Shown in pieces: positions 54,166 through 64,000 of a stretch of 64,000 nucleotides of DNA. Position 1 is the first letter of the stretch. Every line of letters begins with the position of its first letter. The notes under the pieces were generated by a model. That model was not told the DNA's origin and ran no database searches. It saw only the letters and a list, made by a program, of their open reading frames with translations. Made by a program: the position numbers and the translations under genes. Source of the DNA: an uncultured Clostridia bacterium (GTDB taxonomy: Bacteria; Bacillota; Clostridia; HGM11514); the NCBI GenBank assembly GCA_934464705.1, contig CAKSKB010000013.1:139-64138 (forward strand), in the 5' to 3' direction.

Positions 54166-55441
54166 AATATTGCCGCAGCAGTATCGGCGTGGTACCCGGG
54201 TATGGAAGCCGGCAATGCGATTGCGGATGTTCTTTGCGGCAAGGTGAATCCTTCCGCGAAACTTACGATTACAATGGCGTCAAGTCTGGATGATTATTTG
54301 TCTACGAATAATTTCGGATCACAGGATACTGTATATAAGGAAGATATTTTTGTAGGCTACAGGCAGTTTGAAACATTTGACCCGACCTACAGCAAGGTTA
54401 ATTATCCCTTCGGGCACGGTCTGTCGTATACAAGCTTTTCGATTACTCCTTCCGTGACTGCCGCAAACGGCATATTAATGTCAGTGCTACGGTCAAAAAT
54501 ACAGGAAGCGTTGCCGGAAAAGAGGTTGCACAGGTCTATTTTTCAGCGCCGCAGAGAAATGCGTCTGATGTAAAACTTTCAAAGCCCGGCAAAGAGCTTG
54601 CGGTTTTCGGAAAAACCAAAACCCTTGCCCCCGGTGAATCGCAGACGCTGGAACTTTCGTTCCCGATAAGCGATATGGCAAGCTATGATGATATGGGAAA
54701 AGCCGGGCACAAGTCGGCTTATGTTCCGGAAACCGGAGATTATAAAATTTATGTCGGCAACTCTATAAAAAATACCGGCGAAAACGGCGTTCATGCTTCT
54801 GAGCGTTATGACCTTCTTACAACCGTTGCAAGGGGCGAGTGGGGCTTTGACGGATACTTCACTACCAACCGGGGCGGTTACACCGATGTGCCTTGCAAGA
54901 TTATTATAAAAGCAGGTAACGGCCTTATTCTTGGACACAATACCTATGGGGCGCCGGATCAGCTTAAGACAGCCCTTAAAGACGGGACACTCAAACGCGG
55001 TGAAATTGAAGTTTGCATAAAGCGTGTTCTTGAAATGATGCTTAAAACAACTGCTCCCGATAAGTTAAAAGACGACGCAGTTAAAATCAGCTCTATAGGC
55101 AGAATCAGAATCCCGGCTGTTGAGTATGTAAGTGCTTCATCGGGAGTCGGCACGGAAGCCGTTAAGACTCAGGACAGCTCCGGGAATTCCTTGAAAGACC
55201 CCGCAAACAACTATTTCAAGTCGGTTATGGAATGAAGATTTGGATAAAGGGCGATGCCGCACATTCTCTGACATTGCCTGTAATGATTGACGCACAGACA
55301 GCAGCTGCTGCGTCACCGAATACCGCATTTTCAGTCAAGGTGTTCGGATCTGCAATTACTTCCGATAATACTTATGTATTTAAGCATTATGTCGGCTCAA
55401 GCGAGGGCGAAGAAATGGAAGTAACCTATAAAGATGAATAA
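54166..55441 (+). pseudogene. 5'-truncated, frameshifted GH3 beta-glucosidase remnant
   Basis: Coding similarity begins at 54166 with AAVSAWYPGMEAGNAIADVLCGKVNPS...YPFGHGLSYTSF, which is the C-terminal domain of a GH3. A -1 frameshift falls near 54470. The GH3 FnIII-like domain continues in another frame (NVSATVKNTGSVAGKEVAQVYF...GDYKIYVGNS) to 55235. A further small ORF follows to 55441. The roughly 400-aa N-terminal catalytic domain is absent. Confidence 0.6.
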
Positions 55442-55524
55442 CTTACAGTAAAAACTGCTGTGAAAATTTCGGCTTGCTTTAGGCGAGTCGGAATTTTTTT
55501 GTTTTTAAAAATTAAAAAAACTAT

Positions 55525-55553
55525 TGACAAAAATGTAAAATTATGTTATAAAT
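55525..55553 (+). promoter_or_regulatory. sigma-A promoter (TTGACA-16/17-TATAAAT) with about 110-nt leader
   Basis: TTGACA at 55525-55530. The leader contains a 14-codon uORF (55565..55609, MSKYVKRGVVPLVM*) and a GTGATTT-cggca-AAATCAC hairpin. Confidence 0.45.
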
Positions 55554-55668: not shown

Positions 55669-58600
55669 ATGAAAAAACTGAGAGCAATACTGTCGGTATT
55701 TTTAGTTCTGATAATAGTTTTTGGAATGCTGAAAACCGGCGTCTTTGCAGAAGAAACCGCCGCTGAAACCGCAGTTTCGGAAGAAATTTACGAAACTGAC
55801 GAAACGGCAGCTGAAGAAACAACGGAACAAGAAACAGAGATGCAGCCGCAGGGGGAAGAAATCGAACAAGCGGCAGATTACAGCGAAGAGGAAAATACAG
55901 CGCATTCCAAAGTTGAAGGCGTTGATTATTCAACAGAATATTGCGAATCCAAAATGACAGACGATGAAATTTCGGTGCTTGAAAAAGCATACGGATTTCA
56001 TGCGTCGGATACACCTTATGATGAAGAAATTATAGGGGAAGCATATAATCAGTACCAGATTTCCGTGCCGGGCGGTACAGTTTCGGTTAACGCTGCACCG
56101 AGCAGCTACACCGAGCTGGCAATTCCGTCAACGACAACGGTAACCACAACATCTGCATCGCAGAAGATTTATTACAAAATTGTGCCGTCCGCAACCGGCA
56201 GATACTGCTTTAAATCAGACTCGGGAAGCGGCGGTGATACATATGCAAGGCTGCTTAATTCTTCGGGAAGCCAGCTGGCATACTGCGATTCCGGACTTAT
56301 GCAGCCCAATGTTGAAGACTTTCACATAAATGAAATTCTGACAAAGAACACTACATATTATCTTGAGGTTCAGAACAAAAAGGGTGCCGGCAGTTTCAAA
56401 ATGTATGTGTTTTCGGATGATTACCTTGACGGAACATATAAGCCCGCAGAACTGACATTCGGCGAAAACAAATCGGGAACAATCAACTACGCTTATGACC
56501 ATGATATGTTCAAATTTGTGCCGACCGAAAGCGGAACTTATTCGTTTTTCACTACCGGCAGCATGGATACTTACGGTTACCTTGTCAACTCATCGCATAC
56601 TGTTCTTGCGTCAAATGATGACAGCGGAGCAGGCAGTAACTTTAAAATTGATTACGCACTCACAAAGGGGCAGGCGTATTATGTAAGCGTTCAGGGGTAT
56701 GGCAACAGTGCCACCGGAAATTACACTATATGTGTAGGTATGGCCGAATCCACTATGACAACCCTTAGCAATAATTCATCGGTGAATGTGTCGTTTTCAT
56801 CCGGGGCAGCGGATAAGTGGTATAAATTCACACCTCCGTCAAGCGGAAGATATTGCTTTAAATCCTGCTCGGATAATCTGGATACCTCGGCGGTTCTTTA
56901 TGATAATCAGTTTGTGGAGGTTGCGCACTGTGATATCGGTTATGTCCGTCCCAACTGGGATGATTTTCACATAAATGAAGTTCTGACCGGCGGAAAGGCT
57001 TATTATCTCAAAGTCAAGATGAAAACGGAAGCCGGCGGCAGCTTCAGCCTTGTCAGCTTTGCCGACGATTATCTTGACGGCAGCTTCGCTTCGGCAGTAG
57101 TTGAAAACGGTGTTGAAAAAAGCGGAACAATCAACCATGCCAGCGACCACGATATGTTTAAGTACACGCCGTCGGGCAGTGAAAACAACATTATAACGCT
57201 GGAGTCATCGGCTGATTTGAAGGTTGATATTTATGCTTCAAATGACGCCTATGTAAAATCGGCTACGGGTAAAAATATATCGCTTCCTCATAATTCAAGC
57301 GGCGCATTCTATTATATTGATGTATATAAAAACACCGGAATCGGCAGCTATAAGCTTAAGGTTTCAAGTGCGGATACCGATGTGTCGTCTGCAGAAACGG
57401 TTAGCTTTCCTGCGGCAAAAACTGTGTCAAGTGGTAAAGTATTCAAAATAATTCCGTCGGTCAGCGGTAAATATTCTATGAAATCCGTAACAACAGATAA
57501 CACTACATACGGTGCTTTGTATGATAATTGCGGAAAACTTTTGTTCCGCTATACAGATGGCAGAAGCGGTGACAATCTTCATGATTTTCACATAATGGAA
57601 ACACTTGAAAAGGACAAAATTTATTACTTTAAAGTTACTTCTTCGGCAAGCGGAAATATTCCTGTATATTTTTATGCCGATGATTATACCGACGGAACAA
57701 ATAATGCAAACGGTACACCGCTTCAGCAGGAGGTTTTTGCCGGTGAATCGTGGGCATCGGTTATAAATTACACTTCTGACAGAGATGTATTCATATTTAA
57801 GCCGATTATCAGCGGGGAATATGAAATTGCGGCAGACAAGCCTCAAATCTCATTTGAAGTTTACAGTGACCGTGACCATAAAAAAGTAACCGCCAATTCG
57901 GACGGCAATTACGACCTTGTTGACGGACAAACTTATTTTATTGATTTTTATGCTTCGAGCGCATTTACAGGAAGCTTTAATTTCGATATAAACATGATTA
58001 AAGCGGCACATAGCTATAATGTTGCGTCATCCAATGAACTTTTTGATATAAAAGTAAAACAGGGAGAAAGTGCATTTTATGAGCTTGGCAGCGGAATTTC
58101 AGGTTTCAAAACCGTTTCGGCAAAATCGTCAAAAGATGAACTGAGTCTTTGTATTGTTGATGATGAAGGACGAAACTGCTCGAGTGTTGAGTATGAACCC
58201 CGTACGGCACGGTTCTCAACTTATTACAACTTTGAAAGCGATAAAAAATATTATCTTAAAGTGTCAAACAATGATACTGCAGATGCAACAGTATATGCTG
58301 CGATTTACAGTGATGATTATCCGAACCGCAAACAGGATCTGATAACTTATGAGTTTGGTGAAACGAACGGCAAAATAGATTTCGACGGTGATGTTGATGT
58401 TTATAAATTTGCTTGCGAAAGCAACAGTGTCATCAATATACGCTATGAGGGCGAAAATGATTTGACCTTTAAGGTTTTCAGCGGCGAAGTCTGGATCGGC
58501 TCTGAGCAAAGCGGCAAAAATGTTAACCTTAATCTTAGCACCGGAAGCAACAATGTTTGCTATGTGTATGTATATCATACATCCGAAATCGGTATATGCA

Positions 58601-59607
58601 GTTACAAGTTTACGGCGGATGTGCTTGATTTTTCGGACAGCAACTGCACCGTGCTGACGCTTGATGTTCCGGCTTATGCAAACCTTACTTCAACCGATGA
58701 TTACAAGCTGTTTTCGTTTGTTCCCGAAAAAACGGCTATGTACAGAATAGACACGGGAAACGAAGCTAAAATCGAGATATATGATTATTACCTCAATCTT
58801 AAGGAAACAACATATTACTATGACCTGGATTGTACCTATTTAAGCTGTGATATGAAAAAAGGAAAAACATATTACATAAAAATAAGCTGCTTTAACGGTG
58901 ATGAAAATTATCTCGGCAATATTTCGGTTACCGCAACAATGGACGATTATCCGGGCGGTGTTCCTTATAATGTTCCTACAATCGGCAGCGGCGATGTTCA
59001 GAAGGGCTGCATAGAAATACCGGGTGATGAGGACAGCTATTGGGTTCAGGTTGAAAACGACGGAACATATAACATTGTTTCGCTCGGAGGAACCGATGTG
59101 AAAGCTGAACTCTATGACGGAAGCACTGTTATTGCAAGTGATGATAACAGCGGTGACGGTATGAATTTCAAAATGACCGCAGAGCTTGCCGGAGAAACTC
59201 CATACAGGCTGCGTATAACCGGAGGAACCGCAGCGGCTGTCGGCGGATACAGGATTTATGTCAGCCCGGCGTCCGCATTGAATACGGTTTACGGTTATGC
59301 TGCAAGAAATGATATAGTCAATGTTGAATTTGCAAAGAAGGGCAGCGGAAATTCAGCGGTATATACTTTTAATTATGACAGTGAAGCATTTGAAATTTAC
59401 GATTTGTGCGGTCTGACATTTGCGCTGGAACTTGAAGCGGCGGCAATAGGAAATGTAACAATAAACAGTGTTACACCGGGAACGGTTGTGTTTACGGTTT
59501 CCGGAAACGGTGCGGACGCTTTCGCAGATAGGGTAGAAAATATTATAAGACTCAAGGCAAAAAGAGACGGAGCGTTTCTTTGCACCTGGAGCTGCACAAA
59601 CAGCTGA
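55669..59607 (+). CDS. giant secreted modular protein with ~10 PPC-like (pre-peptidase C-terminal-type) beta-sandwich repeats
   Basis: Signal peptide MKKLRAILSVFLVLIIVFGMLKTGVFA, then an acidic E/T/A-rich linker. Two module types alternate. Type A carries SG(R/K)Y(C/S)FKS...DFHI(N/M)E...YY(L/F)(K/E)V, and type B carries GTINYA(Y/S)DHDMFK(F/Y)...Y.(I/V). The C-terminal ~110 aa may be Ig/cohesin-like. Confidence 0.7.
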   Translation: MKKLRAILSVFLVLIIVFGMLKTGVFAEETAAETAVSEEIYETDETAAEETTEQETEMQPQGEEIEQAADYSEEENTAHSKVEGVDYSTEYCESKMTDDEISVLEKAYGFHASDTPYDEEIIGEAYNQYQISVPGGTVSVNAAPSSYTELAIPSTTTVTTTSASQKIYYKIVPSATGRYCFKSDSGSGGDTYARLLNSSGSQLAYCDSGLMQPNVEDFHINEILTKNTTYYLEVQNKKGAGSFKMYVFSDDYLDGTYKPAELTFGENKSGTINYAYDHDMFKFVPTESGTYSFFTTGSMDTYGYLVNSSHTVLASNDDSGAGSNFKIDYALTKGQAYYVSVQGYGNSATGNYTICVGMAESTMTTLSNNSSVNVSFSSGAADKWYKFTPPSSGRYCFKSCSDNLDTSAVLYDNQFVEVAHCDIGYVRPNWDDFHINEVLTGGKAYYLKVKMKTEAGGSFSLVSFADDYLDGSFASAVVENGVEKSGTINHASDHDMFKYTPSGSENNIITLESSADLKVDIYASNDAYVKSATGKNISLPHNSSGAFYYIDVYKNTGIGSYKLKVSSADTDVSSAETVSFPAAKTVSSGKVFKIIPSVSGKYSMKSVTTDNTTYGALYDNCGKLLFRYTDGRSGDNLHDFHIMETLEKDKIYYFKVTSSASGNIPVYFYADDYTDGTNNANGTPLQQEVFAGESWASVINYTSDRDVFIFKPIISGEYEIAADKPQISFEVYSDRDHKKVTANSDGNYDLVDGQTYFIDFYASSAFTGSFNFDINMIKAAHSYNVASSNELFDIKVKQGESAFYELGSGISGFKTVSAKSSKDELSLCIVDDEGRNCSSVEYEPRTARFSTYYNFESDKKYYLKVSNNDTADATVYAAIYSDDYPNRKQDLITYEFGETNGKIDFDGDVDVYKFACESNSVINIRYEGENDLTFKVFSGEVWIGSEQSGKNVNLNLSTGSNNVCYVYVYHTSEIGICSYKFTADVLDFSDSNCTVLTLDVPAYANLTSTDDYKLFSFVPEKTAMYRIDTGNEAKIEIYDYYLNLKETTYYYDLDCTYLSCDMKKGKTYYIKISCFNGDENYLGNISVTATMDDYPGGVPYNVPTIGSGDVQKGCIEIPGDEDSYWVQVENDGTYNIVSLGGTDVKAELYDGSTVIASDDNSGDGMNFKMTAELAGETPYRLRITGGTAAAVGGYRIYVSPASALNTVYGYAARNDIVNVEFAKKGSGNSAVYTFNYDSEAFEIYDLCGLTFALELEAAAIGNVTINSVTPGTVVFTVSGNGADAFADRVENIIRLKAKRDGAFLCTWSCTNS

Positions 59608-59618
59608 GGAGGATAAAA

Positions 59619-60596
59619 ATGAAAAGAATAATACTTATTACAATAGGTCTTATAGCAGCATTGGCGATAGGTGTATTTGCGGCGGACGGAATCACCGGCG
59701 GGGATATTATCGGTGTTTTTGAGCCGGAAGTTACAGAAGTTGCCGAAGAGACCGAGGAAATCGCCGCAGAACCCGACGGCACGGTTTATGTAACCGAAAA
59801 CGCCCTGACGGCGCTGCTGAACTCAGATAAAACCCGAAGCGAAGCAACAGGGGAGCTTGAGGCGGTTTACTCTATGACGGCTGAATACGGAATGACAGAT
59901 GAAGAAGCGGCGTATATTGCAAATCTGGTTAATAATGGCTATGACCTTTCGTGGCTTCTTGATATTTATGTATTCTGGACAACCTGCGATGATGATATAA
60001 GCATAATAAAGAGCATGTACGATTCTGCCGTAAATAATGATATTAACGGCAGGTACTGGGAGGAGGACGCTTATAACATCGTAACAAACCGTAAACACGG
60101 CGAGCTGAGCGTTGATGAAATTATGGCGTATCTCGATAAAGGTCTTAGCATTGATGATGTAAGGCAGGCGAATGTACTTTCGAGAAACAAGGATTATACA
60201 ATCAGCGAGATTCTTGACGAAGTTGTCGGCGGAAAAAGTATGGACGAAATGAAAAAGGATGTATTCGGAAGCAACGAAGATAAGCCGGCAGAGAGTCTGG
60301 CGCTTGAGCAAAGACACGGCGTAACTGCGGTTGATACAAATAAAGAGGTTTATGTAAAATCGGCTTCCGCAGCGGTTTCCGCAGAAACCAATAAGAATAA
60401 AGTCAGGGCGTATTTGAATGAAAAGCTCGGGGAGGAACGCACAAATGAGCTTCTCTCAAAGTATTCTTATATCATTGTATATAATGCTGCCGAGGCAGCT
60501 GAAAGCGAGAATACAGATATAGAACAAATTCTCAATGAATACGAAACACTCGGAAACAGAACAAGAACACTTGAAAGGAGTGTGTATTTAGGATGA
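59619..60596 (+). CDS. hypothetical exported/membrane-anchored protein
   Basis: RBS AGGAGG precedes the start. N-terminal TM/signal MKRIILITIGLIAALAIGVFA, followed by an acidic region. Its stop overlaps the RHS gene start. Confidence 0.55.
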   Translation: MKRIILITIGLIAALAIGVFAADGITGGDIIGVFEPEVTEVAEETEEIAAEPDGTVYVTENALTALLNSDKTRSEATGELEAVYSMTAEYGMTDEEAAYIANLVNNGYDLSWLLDIYVFWTTCDDDISIIKSMYDSAVNNDINGRYWEEDAYNIVTNRKHGELSVDEIMAYLDKGLSIDDVRQANVLSRNKDYTISEILDEVVGGKSMDEMKKDVFGSNEDKPAESLALEQRHGVTAVDTNKEVYVKSASAAVSAETNKNKVRAYLNEKLGEERTNELLSKYSYIIVYNAAEAAESENTDIEQILNEYETLGNRTRTLERSVYLG

Positions 60597-63500
60597 AAAA
60601 ACTTATAATAGGTTTGAGCCTGCTTGCTGTGCTGCTTTGTTTCGGAGCGGCAGCGTATGCGTCAACCGAAGGCTCTGCCGACATTGCGGCGCAGATAAGT
60701 TATAATCAAAAAATATCAGGTTCGGAATATAAATCACCGCTTAATACTGATGATGAACAAAGGGTTGATGTGCGTTCGCAGAGCCTCATAATCAATAGTA
60801 CCGATATAAGCCTTCCGGGTAAAAACGGTATGGATTTGAATATTATGAGAGCATATAGGAGCGCATCTGAAAAGATGATCAGCATATCAGCACCCGGTAA
60901 AACAGCGGATTACATATCGAAAAAGTATGCTTATAAATATAATTACAGTTATAATAATACAGATTACAGCTGTTATATAATATTTGACGGCGAAGAGGAT
61001 ATGTTTTCAAAGGGCGTAAATGTCCAGATAAAAAATATATACCGTGCTGGTGGTGCGAAACCGGGCGCGGACCCGGTTACGACTGTTAACGGTTTAAATG
61101 CCTATTATTACACAGCTCTTAAAAAAGATACCTATAGCGGCTTAACGCTGCTGAGAGATGCAGCTCAGGCTGCTGTTGAGGTAGATGTGGCAGTTAAATC
61201 GACATCGGTGGACAGTGATGTTTTCAGCGACCTTAAGGAAAAGGATAAGATCTGTGATGGCTGGTATCTGAGAATGCCGTATTTGCGGTTTTATTCCGAA
61301 ACAAGAAATGATTATTATGTTGATAGAAATGCAGTAGTATTTAACGGAACAGCCTATAACAATTTATCATATACCGTACAAAATTGTCTGTTTAGCAACG
61401 AGAACGGACAGCTTATATGGGGCGAATACAGAAGGTATTATATAGAACGCACTGAAAAGGAAATGATACAGGATCCCGAAAGCGGAAGAGGCGTGTGGGT
61501 AGATAAAAAGGTATATGATTATGTCGGCAGTCGCTTGTGGATAAATGAAGCCTATGCGAGCGTCAGCGAAGGTGATGACGGTTACGGCGGTGAAATTGAC
61601 GGAATCGGTTATTCTTTTTACTTTGTAGATAAGGGAACCGGTTACGGGTATTATTTCAGTAACGGAAGGCTTAGGGTTAAGGAAGATAAATACGGAAACA
61701 AAATCAAGTATTACTATACTTCCGACAACAGATTAAGTTATATAACCGATACCTATGGGAGAACAGTGAATTTCACATGGGGTGCAAATGGTTATGCCCT
61801 TGATATAGGCTACGGAAACCGCCATGTTAAGTATAAAACATACAGTAGCGAGGGCGACTCTCCGCTTGACCGCGATGATACTTGTACAATGGAATATATT
61901 AATGAGGCTAATGAAAAGACTGTATATACCTCATCAAGAATAGGTTCTGTAGTAAGAAATGAAAGGATAGCTCCAAATGTTTCGTATTATGATTATATAA
62001 ATTATATTACTGATATTGAATATGCGAGTGGCGGACACAAAAAGTATGATTATGGCTACCTTAAAACTAAGGATTGGGAATGCAGTCCGATGGTGGTCAA
62101 ACAGGAAAAAACACAAACCAACGGTGAGGTTAAAGAGGTTGTCAACTACAAAGGCGAACATACTCTGACTGATGCAGAAACGGAAGATTTTGCGTTGAAC
62201 ACATATCTTGCACACGCTGCAGCCGGGTACACAACACCGGATGATTTTACGAAGGTTACCACAGAGAACAGTGCCGATGACGGCAGTACAAGCACGGTCA
62301 TTTACGGTTACAGCAACGGCACACTGAAAGCGGTGCTTAGCTATGACGGTAAAGGCAATGTAAACCGAAAATTCAGCTACTACAGTAAAAAAGACGGTTA
62401 CGATATAATATCTGAGGAAACAACTGTGCAGTATAATAAAAACAATGCTTCCGATGTTGTGACCAAAACCGATACCTATGATTACGAACAGCCGTATAAC
62501 AATCTTACATACAGCTATGACGGGCGTGTGACCGTGCGTAATAAGTATTATGAGAAGGCTGCAAATCCGGCAATCTATCCGAGATACCTCGTGGAAAAGG
62601 ATCAGCGCGTGATGGACGGAACAGACAGCGAATATCCGTATATTCATAGGGTTGAAAGGTATAAATATGAAAGCTATGCAAGCGGAAACGAACAGTTTGA
62701 GGCAACCAACCCATCGTATCTTCTCGTGTGGGAAAACGAAGAAAAAGAGGACGGTACAATAAAAGGCGGAGCCGGTACACTGAAAGAGAGAATCGAGTAT
62801 GAGTATGATTCCTGCGGAAGAGTAATTAAGGTAAAAAAGCTTGAAACGCCGCATACCGGTGCCAGAAACGAAAATTCTCCCGGCGAGATTACAACATATT
62901 CTTACGAAGATACCGGCTACGGTACGGATGTGAGCGCACTGAAAACCGTAACCGAAAGCAAAACCCTTACGGACGGTACCGTCGCTTCCGTTGTAACGAA
63001 ATATGATTACTATGGAAATAAAGTTTCGGTTTCCGGTTACGGCACCGATAGCGTAACCTATACCTACGATGCGAAAAACCGCGTAACACGCGAACAGTAT
63101 GCAGACGGTACGGCAAAAACATATTCTTATATCGTAACACCCGCCGCTTGCAAAACGGAAGTTACCGACCAGAGCGGCAAGAAAATCAGAATCGTTTATG
63201 ACGATCTGGGAAGACAAATTAAAACCCTCGTCAACCCCGGAGAGCCTTCCGAAACTGCTGTTGAGGAAATAAATTACAATAATTTGGGACAAATTAGTAA
63301 AAAAACTCTTGACAGCGGTGATAATTCATGTTATAATGTGGAATATAAATACAATTGCTTTGGCGAGGTAATTGAGGAAAAGGCAACGGATAATACCGGA
63401 AAGGTTTACCGTCAGAATAATTATGATTATTCTTTCGGGCAGGCTGAAGGTAAAATGTGCCGCGTAACAACCACAACATCAAAGGTAAGGAATGAACATG

Positions 63501-64000
63501 ACAGGGTTGTTACAAAGTATGCCGATGCCTGGGGGCTTTTGGTCAAGGCAACCGCAAAAGGCGGAAATGATGAGTATTCCGTTAAGAATACCTATGACAG
63601 CTGCGGCGTGCTTAAATCATCAACCGATGCAAACGGCAATGTTACAAGCTTTGGCTATGACTATAACAGCAGGCAGATTTCCGAAACCAATGCCGCAGGC
63701 AAAACCAAGAGCTGTACCTATAATATTTATGGGTATATGACAACCTCAACGGATTTCATGGGCAATGTTACAAATTATTCCTATGATAATCTCGGGAGAG
63801 TGACGGAGACCATAGCACCTATGTCCGATTCCGAAAATATGAAAACCCAAACCTTTTATAACGCTGCCGGCGATAAGGCAAAGGATAGGGTTTATACCTC
63901 CGCATCGGAGTTCAGGGATACAGACTATACCTACGATAACCGCCATAGAGTAACTACCGTAACAAGCGACGGCGTAAGCTATACAAAGTATTTCTATGAT
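60593..64000 (+). CDS. WapA-like RHS/YD-repeat polymorphic toxin precursor (5' partial, runs off window)
   Basis: ATG at 60593 is embedded in GGATGA, overlapping the upstream stop. Sec signal MKKLIIGLSLLAVLLCFGAAAYA. The frame was translated by hand and stays open for more than 1135 codons to the window end. It contains many YD repeats (YEYDSCGRVIKV, YTYDAKNRVTRE, YDDLGRQIKT, YSYDNLGRVTET, YTYDNRHRVTTV). Confidence 0.8.
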   Translation, partial: MKKLIIGLSLLAVLLCFGAAAYASTEGSADIAAQISYNQKISGSEYKSPLNTDDEQRVDVRSQSLIINSTDISLPGKNGMDLNIMRAYRSASEKMISISAPGKTADYISKKYAYKYNYSYNNTDYSCYIIFDGEEDMFSKGVNVQIKNIYRAGGAKPGADPVTTVNGLNAYYYTALKKDTYSGLTLLRDAAQAAVEVDVAVKSTSVDSDVFSDLKEKDKICDGWYLRMPYLRFYSETRNDYYVDRNAVVFNGTAYNNLSYTVQNCLFSNENGQLIWGEYRRYYIERTEKEMIQDPESGRGVWVDKKVYDYVGSRLWINEAYASVSEGDDGYGGEIDGIGYSFYFVDKGTGYGYYFSNGRLRVKEDKYGNKIKYYYTSDNRLSYITDTYGRTVNFTWGANGYALDIGYGNRHVKYKTYSSEGDSPLDRDDTCTMEYINEANEKTVYTSSRIGSVVRNERIAPNVSYYDYINYITDIEYASGGHKKYDYGYLKTKDWECSPMVVKQEKTQTNGEVKEVVNYKGEHTLTDAETEDFALNTYLAHAAAGYTTPDDFTKVTTENSADDGSTSTVIYGYSNGTLKAVLSYDGKGNVNRKFSYYSKKDGYDIISEETTVQYNKNNASDVVTKTDTYDYEQPYNNLTYSYDGRVTVRNKYYEKAANPAIYPRYLVEKDQRVMDGTDSEYPYIHRVERYKYESYASGNEQFEATNPSYLLVWENEEKEDGTIKGGAGTLKERIEYEYDSCGRVIKVKKLETPHTGARNENSPGEITTYSYEDTGYGTDVSALKTVTESKTLTDGTVASVVTKYDYYGNKVSVSGYGTDSVTYTYDAKNRVTREQYADGTAKTYSYIVTPAACKTEVTDQSGKKIRIVYDDLGRQIKTLVNPGEPSETAVEEINYNNLGQISKKTLDSGDNSCYNVEYKYNCFGEVIEEKATDNTGKVYRQNNYDYSFGQAEGKMCRVTTTTSKVRNEHDRVVTKYADAWGLLVKATAKGGNDEYSVKNTYDSCGVLKSSTDANGNVTSFGYDYNSRQISETNAAGKTKSCTYNIYGYMTTSTDFMGNVTNYSYDNLGRVTETIAPMSDSENMKTQTFYNAAGDKAKDRVYTSASEFRDTDYTYDNRHRVTTVTSDGVSYTKYFYD

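Follow-up and report, generated by a model that had tools for sequence, protein, structure and literature searches.

How RHS toxins that Gram-positive bacteria export via the Sec pathway recognise and reach their targets is poorly understood. This question is raised by a 64,000-nt stretch of DNA from an uncultured Clostridia bacterium (assembly GCA_934464705.1, contig CAKSKB010000013.1, positions 139 to 64,138 of the forward strand; hereafter the window), in which a gene for a long repetitive protein of 1312 aa (gene 1, 55669..59607, like all features below on the + strand) lies upstream of an RHS gene. What does such a protein do next to a toxin? Regarding gene order and domain types, gene 1 could be read as encoding, within a three-gene operon for a Sec-secreted RHS polymorphic toxin, the variable subunit that binds to surfaces, a reading which in our judgement has an even chance of being correct. 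The constituents are of known kinds, namely modules of the pre-peptidase C-terminal (PPC) type, a cohesin-like domain and an RHS polymorphic toxin locus; it is their modular three-gene arrangement that is interesting, and the conservation of the operon points to modular targeting. The organisms concerned are Clostridia of the human gut, abundant yet uncultured.

The three genes look like one tight operon, because the second gene, here called mid, starts 11 nt after the stop codon of gene 1 behind a GGAGG ribosome-binding site, and the ATG of the RHS gene at 60593 overlaps the stop codon of mid (ATGA). Hence, the RHS gene does not follow the array gene immediately, as the first-pass annotation had stated; mid (59619..60596) intervenes. 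It is an open reading frame (ORF) for a protein of 325 aa with a Sec-type leader, an acidic linker and a body predicted to be all-helical, for which neither Pfam, NCBIfam nor PDB sequences returned a match; its AlphaFold2 (AF2) model was of low confidence (predicted local distance difference test score, pLDDT, 56) and gave no meaningful match in Foldseek. Gene 3 (60593..64000) encodes an RHS/YD-repeat protein with a signal peptide (PF05593, E=8e-18; TIGR01643) and runs off the end of the window. Secretion leaders are found on the products of all three genes.

The arrangement recurs in related loci, which were gathered with mid as search anchor and all scanned with our own hidden Markov models (HMMs). 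In nine lineages with enough upstream sequence (window group, L001, L004-7, L014-16, L017, L018, L020, L021, L022), a gene ending in the cohesin-like tail described below stands directly 5' of mid, and as far as the contigs extend mid is followed by an RHS gene; the intergenic gaps in this operon family amount to about 11-25 nt. The body of the first gene differs between lineages. PPC-module arrays are found in the window and in L001, while the contig of L022 is cut and contains a PPC module and the tail only. The body consists of an S8 peptidase and RCC1 propellers in L004, of an S8 peptidase, RCC1 repeats and a PPC module in L015, of three ConA-like PF06439 domains, Golvesin_C and F5/8C in L020, of Golvesin_C in L021, and of a beta-rich region without Pfam match in L017. 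In L001, the array protein P0003 with twelve modules is followed by mid (35% identity, E=5e-44) and RHS (30% identity, E=6e-96), in a genomic neighbourhood (fucose isomerase, GH95) that differs from that of the window. In three further lineages (L011, L012, L024-26) mid and RHS occur by themselves, in L011 and L012 behind housekeeping genes and in L024-26 with no tail-bearing gene found within the fetched flank. Taken together, mid and RHS form the constant core of the operon, to which an optional first gene with an interchangeable body and always the same cohesin-like end is added.

These loci also refine the link between array and toxin that had been proposed from the window. The question whether the array gene occurs in relatives without an RHS gene nearby was answered in favour of the link, as mid comes next after the array gene in the window, in L009 and in L001, with RHS behind it as far as the contigs go; L009 is a close relative, and L001 has an array protein only about 30% identical to that of the window. 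The link holds as membership in the operon and not for the PPC array itself, because one array without tail (P0004/L013) is not located beside an RHS gene. The element that tracks the operon is therefore the cohesin-like tail and not the PPC array, since the tail is constant over differing bodies whereas the tailless array sits away from RHS. A separate observation concerns the first gene of L014-16 (L014:246-749, L015:1-3858, L016:1-1974), which is broken by an in-frame TAG inside a PPC module; it was seen in three contigs of one study, probably from one strain, and may mark a pseudogene, a recoded stop or a sequencing artefact.

The tail comprises the last ~112 residues of the gene-1 protein (aa 1201-1312, 59269..59604) and, according to profiles, is common to all first genes of the operon family; it carries the motifs IYDLCG(L/F)T and N(I/V)(I/V)R(L/F)KAK. 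The first-pass annotation had left open an Ig or a cohesin-like domain, and the evidence supports the latter. The tail of L004 reaches 26.1 bits (E=1.1e-5) with Pfam Cohesin (PF00963), above the gathering score of 24.1 bits, and covers profile positions 12-113 of 139. The tail of P0003, which is 39% identical to that of the window (BLAST E=3e-15) and homologous to that of L004 (E=3e-4), scores 22.3 bits. Searches of the PDB with tail profiles returned almost only cohesins, among them CipA cohesin-2 and ScaB, at weak E-values of 0.08-0.5. The model of the tail is all-beta with about eight strands and one short helix. The tail resembles cohesins in its size of ~110-125 aa, in the predicted all-beta fold, in the homolog above cut-off and in the PDB profile matches, and its block TYT(L/V)(D/E)YD...L resembles the cohesin core. 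It differs from the cohesins of scaffoldins by its single copy, its position at the extreme C-terminus, its own motifs and the lack of a dockerin partner in the operon. A calcium-loop motif of the form D.[DN].[DN]G.{2,6}[DN] was present in no mid or RHS protein examined, and with no Pfam Dockerin match in these proteins either, a canonical cohesin-dockerin pair within the operon is excluded.

While a word-indexed homolog search with the tail gave four fragments only, a full HMMER scan revealed a family with 665 cluster representatives at E<=1e-3. Among the matches listed, the domain lies at the extreme C-terminus in 139 of 146 representatives, in proteins of up to 2412 aa, and the sampled bodies include fn3 arrays, LRR/internalin repeats, Big_2, ConA-like and galactose-binding-like modules. 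In a minority of members (P0053, P0089, P0113, P0120, P0148) the cohesin-like domain directly follows the signal peptide and precedes Cys-rich or chitobiase/Fn3-associated repeats; because of P0053 and similar members it is not strictly a C-terminal tag. The breadth of this family feeds an alternative, in which the gene-1 protein would be a general cell-surface adhesin or the mini-scaffoldin of a non-cellulosomal cohesin-dockerin network, the tail would bind a dockerin protein encoded elsewhere, for example an anchoring protein, and the co-transcription with mid and RHS would be incidental or regulatory. If the association were only one of co-transcription, the protein would be an ordinary repetitive adhesin. 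The number of tail-family members, their mostly C-terminal domain, their adhesin-like bodies and the lack of dockerins in mid and RHS speak in favour of this alternative, as do the Dockerin_1 proteins encoded by a related organism (L013). However, in all nine lineages with a large gene before mid this gene ends in the tail despite unrelated bodies, the genes are separated by the short gaps mentioned above or, as mid and RHS in the window, overlap, and the tail is invariant between strains that recombine the body. We therefore regard the adhesin or scaffoldin alternative as rather unlikely and the targeting subunit remains our preferred reading.

What, then, does the body of the window protein consist of? 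A BLAST self-comparison gave the trivial self-match only and was replaced by iterated HMMs, which were seeded from either module A1 or module B1. Both seeds converge on the same ten modules with domain E-values from 1e-34 to 1e-11, and the repeat structure is thereby far beyond chance; the HMM bounds are aa 155-245, 267-354, 371-461, 483-563, 582-665, 694-772, 798-877, 898-981, 1001-1081 and 1110-1196. The modules of ~105 aa form five A-B pairs, with A subtypes at the odd and B subtypes at the even places, and abut without linkers. Both subtypes are homologous (hhalign probability 98.9%, E=2.7e-17). In order, they are A1 (aa 146-250, 56104..56418), B1 (aa 251-358, 56419..56742), A2 (aa 359-465, 56743..57063), B2 (aa 466-567, 57064..57369), A3 (aa 568-670, 57370..57678), B3 (aa 671-777, 57679..57999), the strongly diverged A4 (aa 778-883, 58000..58317), B4 (aa 884-988, 58318..58632), the diverged A5 (aa 989-1094, 58633..58950) and B5 (aa 1095-1200, 58951..59268). 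The signature quoted before for the A subtype, SG(R/K)Y(C/S)FKS...DFHI(N/M)E, is present in A1-A3 and was not recovered in the diverged A4 and A5, and that for the B subtype, GTIN.A.DHDMFK(F/Y), is clear in B1 and B2 and exists in weaker versions only in B3-B5. B modules share the start DD(Y/H).(D/N/G)G (DDYLDG in B1), and D1, D28 and D30 are invariant in their alignment (in B1 a D.D at aligned positions 28 and 30) while D2 is nearly so. The A subtype lacks this acidic cluster and has its own motifs GRYCFKS and DFHINE. A modules (A1 and A2 of the window, A modules of P0003) often contain two conserved cysteines, GRYCFKS ... A(Y/H)CD, which are absent from B and may form a disulfide specific to the A subtype. 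No tandem repeat exists at the DNA level in gene 1; hence the module duplications are old, and a recent tandem duplication as origin of the array is rejected. A close relative, P0002, likewise has ten modules, and the distant P0003 (29% identity, 1573 aa) has twelve.

Searches with the whole protein were almost silent, with no Pfam match at E<=1, none to PDB sequences in phmmer and only leader and low-complexity matches in NCBIfam; most of its distant phmmer relatives carry PF04151, the Pfam PPC family. Scanned singly, four of eleven B modules and two of eleven A modules match PF04151, all below the gathering score of 25.9 bits (best E-value 2e-4; B1 with 20.2 bits and E=1.1e-3 has the best B-module score known). 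A profile built from the eleven B modules gave stronger results with the PDB, namely 5iku (ColG s3a-s3b) at E=3.1e-7, 3jqw (ColH s3) at E=1.6e-6, 1nqd/1nqj/4hpk at ~7e-5 and 5sv5, the PPC domain of a B. anthracis collagenase, at 4.7e-3; the alignment to the ColG/ColH domains spans profile positions 5-108 of 109. B5 and the tail were modelled together with AF2 at moderate quality (mean pLDDT 70), with B5 as a beta-sandwich that matches folds of the PPC or collagen-binding domain (CBD) type: in Foldseek the model matched 5sv5 with probability 0.99 (template modelling score 0.54, normalised by target; root mean square deviation 4.9 A; 113 columns) and chains of C-CPE, the C-terminal domain of C. 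perfringens enterotoxin, with 0.98-0.99. Thus, the claim of a PPC-like fold was borne out at the level of the superfamily, and the profile and structure searches proposed for checking it retrieved PPC/CBD-type folds. The modules are divergent members of the PPC/collagenase CBD superfamily outside Pfam's own threshold. They share with the CBDs of ColG and ColH the size of ~105-110 aa, the all-beta sandwich and the full-length profile match, and with ColG s3a-s3b the tandem arrangement; the B subtype additionally has acidic residues at its N-terminus and at D28-D30, which align with the DDSRD region of ColG s3b, a segment which we take to be the site of the calcium-chelating aspartates of the collagenase domains, where such a cluster ties the N-terminal segment to the sandwich. 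They differ by the number of ten modules, the two alternating subtypes, the single modules under the Pfam cut-off and the A subtype without acidic cluster and with own motifs, and the likeness is one of sequence and model. No peptidase precedes the modules in the window protein, as would be found in classic PPC proteins (Pfam, NCBIfam), whereas the sibling gene of L015 does combine an S8 peptidase and RCC1 repeats with a PPC-like module.

From this kinship one might argue that the protein is a host-matrix adhesin whose modules act like collagenase CBDs and fix the bacterium or its products to the collagen or mucosal matrix in the gut. Among solved structures, the B modules are indeed closest to the collagen-binding domains of ColG and ColH, and they have kept acidic positions in the part that aligns with DDSRD. 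However, the modules share little identity with the collagenase domains, many functions other than collagen binding exist in the PPC superfamily, the A subtype is devoid of the acidic cluster, and sibling operons have lectin-type bodies or protease plus propeller bodies in place of the array. This replacement suggests a generic targeting function with exchangeable bodies instead of collagen binding, and we consider a matrix adhesin very unlikely indeed.

Variation among strains bears on the role of the body as well. When the window is compared with the allele L002, which is 96% identical, 0 nt differences are seen in the tail, and aa 1-883 differ little (synonymous divergence, dS, 0.038; nonsynonymous divergence, dN, 0.003), whereas module B4 is set apart by a dS of 0.48 and a dN of 0.18, with a dN/dS of 0.36 vs 0.09 for the comparison region. 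Among cluster members P0243-P0254, from strains otherwise ~99% identical, at least two B4 allele types and one recombinant (P0243) occur. The substitution spectrum is dominated by transitions and has no adenine bias. Because dS is raised as much as dN and adenine bias is missing, B4 is regarded as a recombination mosaic that is exchanged among near-identical strains, and a diversity-generating retroelement as source of the variability was rejected on the same grounds. A targeting role would agree with this pattern of a conserved docking end and an exchangeable binding module. The pattern is less easily reconciled with a passive stalk or maturation factor, i.e. a chain that only spaces the RHS protein from the producer cell or aids its export or folding like a pre-peptidase PPC domain, without recognising any target. 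PPC domains are classically accessory to secreted peptidases, an S8 peptidase is present in some sibling first genes, and the linkerless abutting modules suggest a rod, all of which would suit such a factor. However, allelic exchange centred on B4 with the raised dN/dS ratio is unexpected for a passive spacer, many sibling bodies are of the lectin type, and the window protein has no peptidase. A stalk or maturation function is decidedly unlikely in our view, and we return to the targeting subunit as the working interpretation.

The toxin side of the operon can be described from the same loci. The mid family comprises secreted, all-helical proteins of ~325-380 aa (window, L001, L004, L011, L012, L014, L017-L026), always encoded directly upstream of an RHS gene and usually overlapping it. 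Its members share the blocks GYD..W...IY.FW.TC.(D/E)DI and GRYW.E(D/E).(Y/F)N, and an internal repeat is suggested by several short helix pairs. In the RHS protein, aa 1-520 (60593-62152) before the recognisable YD repeats are conserved with the RHS proteins of L001 and L004; this N-terminal part of 520 aa matches no Pfam family, and the first ~500 aa are a candidate site at which mid or the cohesin-like tail could dock. The complete RHS protein of L004 (1905 aa) contains the Rhs-associated core (TIGR03696, E=4.4e-17, aa 1608-1707). On its 3' side (L004:16769-20771; also in L005 and L006) small ORFs come first and then two orphan RHS-tip genes, one of TEN_YD-shell with DUF4329 and one of TEN_YD-shell with SH3_3, both accompanied by more small ORFs. 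This region represents a typical set of spare toxin tips and candidate immunity genes, and with the Rhs-associated core followed by small ORFs and orphan tip cassettes, the L004 locus is organised in the way that marks polymorphic toxin loci. Upstream, L004 encodes an agr-like set of quorum-sensing proteins (AgrB, LytTR regulator, histidine kinase).

Several points weigh against gene 1 as targeting subunit. First, gene 1 is dispensable for the mid-RHS core, because three lineages have mid and RHS without a tail-bearing first gene. Second, the assignment of the tail has weak spots: the tail of the window protein itself has no match to Pfam Cohesin, the confidence of its model is modest (pLDDT 56-86), and no cohesin appeared among the top 50 Foldseek matches of the two-domain model of B5 and tail. 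Third, mid and all RHS proteins examined are without a Pfam Dockerin match, and the large tail family on many adhesin-like proteins may have a general anchoring role unrelated to RHS. Finally, the toxin tip and the immunity gene of the RHS protein at the window locus fall outside the window, and the targeting function itself is deduced from gene order and domain types.

If gene 1 nevertheless encodes the targeting subunit, the following sequence of events can be envisaged. After Sec export, the cohesin-like tail would dock the gene-1 protein onto mid and/or the conserved N-terminal region of RHS, i.e. onto a non-canonical partner other than a dockerin. The chain of PPC modules would then serve as a long multivalent stalk, possibly stiffened by calcium, which binds a surface ligand on the target cell or substrate and thereby brings the RHS toxin shell to its target. 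Target specificity would be retuned when lineages exchange whole bodies or strains exchange B4. From domain types and gene order we would infer an adhesin or scaffold role of the gene-1 protein, in line with the first-pass annotation. In its most far-reaching form, which we judge less likely than not, the proposal is that of a previously undescribed Sec-secreted, three-component RHS toxin particle, which might be built of an RHS shell, the helical adaptor mid from a new family and an interchangeable lectin-like targeting subunit plugged in by a dockerin-independent tail, with the target range being reset by swapping bodies among lineages and B4 among strains. If true, it would represent a Firmicute counterpart of the umbrella and Tc toxins and an answer to the question how Sec-exported Gram-positive RHS toxins find their targets. 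Furthermore, two uncharacterised families are defined, the mid protein and the C-terminal cohesin-like domain.

How does this compare with known toxin systems? The Sec-dependent RHS toxins of Gram-positive bacteria include WapA of Bacillus subtilis and Streptococcus suis, which has an N-terminal signal peptide; to our knowledge, WapA is encoded with its immunity gene only. In the Tc (ABC) toxins a separate large subunit supplies target binding, and TcA forms pores as a pentamer that has a helical shell. The present system resembles WapA as an RHS/YD-repeat toxin with N-terminal signal peptide and the Tc toxins as a multi-gene set in which a separate large subunit would provide target binding. 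Unlike in Tc systems, nothing similar to TcA was detected at the window locus, and mid and the cohesin-like tail belong to neither WapA nor Tc systems. The closest parallel in logic is offered by the umbrella toxin particles UmbA/UmbB/UmbC of Streptomyces, which combine a polymorphic toxin, an adaptor and a subunit of conserved docking domain and variable lectins, each with a secretion signal (PMC11062931). The operon shares with UmbABC the secreted polymorphic toxin, a small candidate adaptor with no known fold family, a subunit in which one putative docking domain is joined to variable lectin-type domains, and the three secretion signals, and some sibling first genes contain a serine-protease domain and beta-propellers. 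However, no homology was detected, the toxin is an RHS protein and not an ALF-repeat/coiled-coil UmbC, the docking domain is cohesin-like and not trypsin-like, and mid is predicted to be all-helical and not a beta-sandwich of the UmbB type. Therefore, the operon may resemble umbrella and Tc toxins in logic, not in ancestry.

The closest match in composition is found within the Clostridia. The 'unconventional scaffoldins' ScaO and ScaP of Acetivibrio cellulolyticus and Clostridium alkalicellulosi unite peptidase, PPC, cohesin, dockerin and Rhs domains in single polypeptides (PMC3413522, PMC6780208), in ScaO1 in the order Peptidase-PPC-Coh1-Doc1-Coh2-RhsA. Judged by domain composition alone, the same parts (S8 peptidase, PPC, cohesin, Rhs repeats) are present here, but they are split over three genes, lack a dockerin and include the helical mid as an extra. 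Our finding also suggests a function for the peptidase-PPC-cohesin-Rhs scaffoldins of cellulolytic clostridia. A literature search, whose coverage did not extend to all journals, found no description of this three-gene operon.

The remaining features concern gene 1 and its upstream region. The outline that had been given for the protein, namely a secreted chain of 1312 aa with signal peptide, acidic linker and ten alternating modules, was confirmed by the ORF, the sequence features and the iterated HMMs; gene 1 is contained in the ORF list with an ATG start, and its exact sequence exists in several public assemblies. The signal peptide (aa 1-27, 55669..55749), MKKLRAILSVFLVLIIVFGMLKTGVFA with EE following, shows basic residues, a hydrophobic core and an AxA-like site as read from the sequence, and NCBIfam gave only weak matches to leader regions of surface proteins. 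It is followed by an acidic E/T/A-rich linker (aa 28-80) and a small N-terminal region (aa 81-145) with no fold assignment, which together (55750..56103) have no family match and form the most strain-variable part of the protein. The expected absence of a catalytic domain was confirmed in the Pfam and NCBIfam scans. The suggested check for anchoring motifs showed that LPxTG and NPxTG sortase motifs are missing from the gene-1 protein, and SLH and dockerin gave no Pfam match.

The ATG of gene 1 at 55669 is preceded by the ribosome-binding site GAAGG. Further upstream, a promoter-like site is read from the sequence as a consensus match only (TTGACA-17 nt-TATAAA, 55524..55552), with a TG two bases 5' of the -10 hexamer; the promoter scan listed a weaker overlapping site at 55512-55541. 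A strong terminator-like hairpin with 17 pairs and a T run (55462..55498) closes the preceding unit of GH3 gene remnants. The GC content around the locus gives no island signature. Just upstream of the operon, at 54202-55441, three successive short ORFs of 123, 186 and 69 aa, the first of which matches the GH3 C-terminal domain PF01915, are read as remnants of a decayed GH3 glycosidase gene, and the same three-ORF arrangement is seen in L002.

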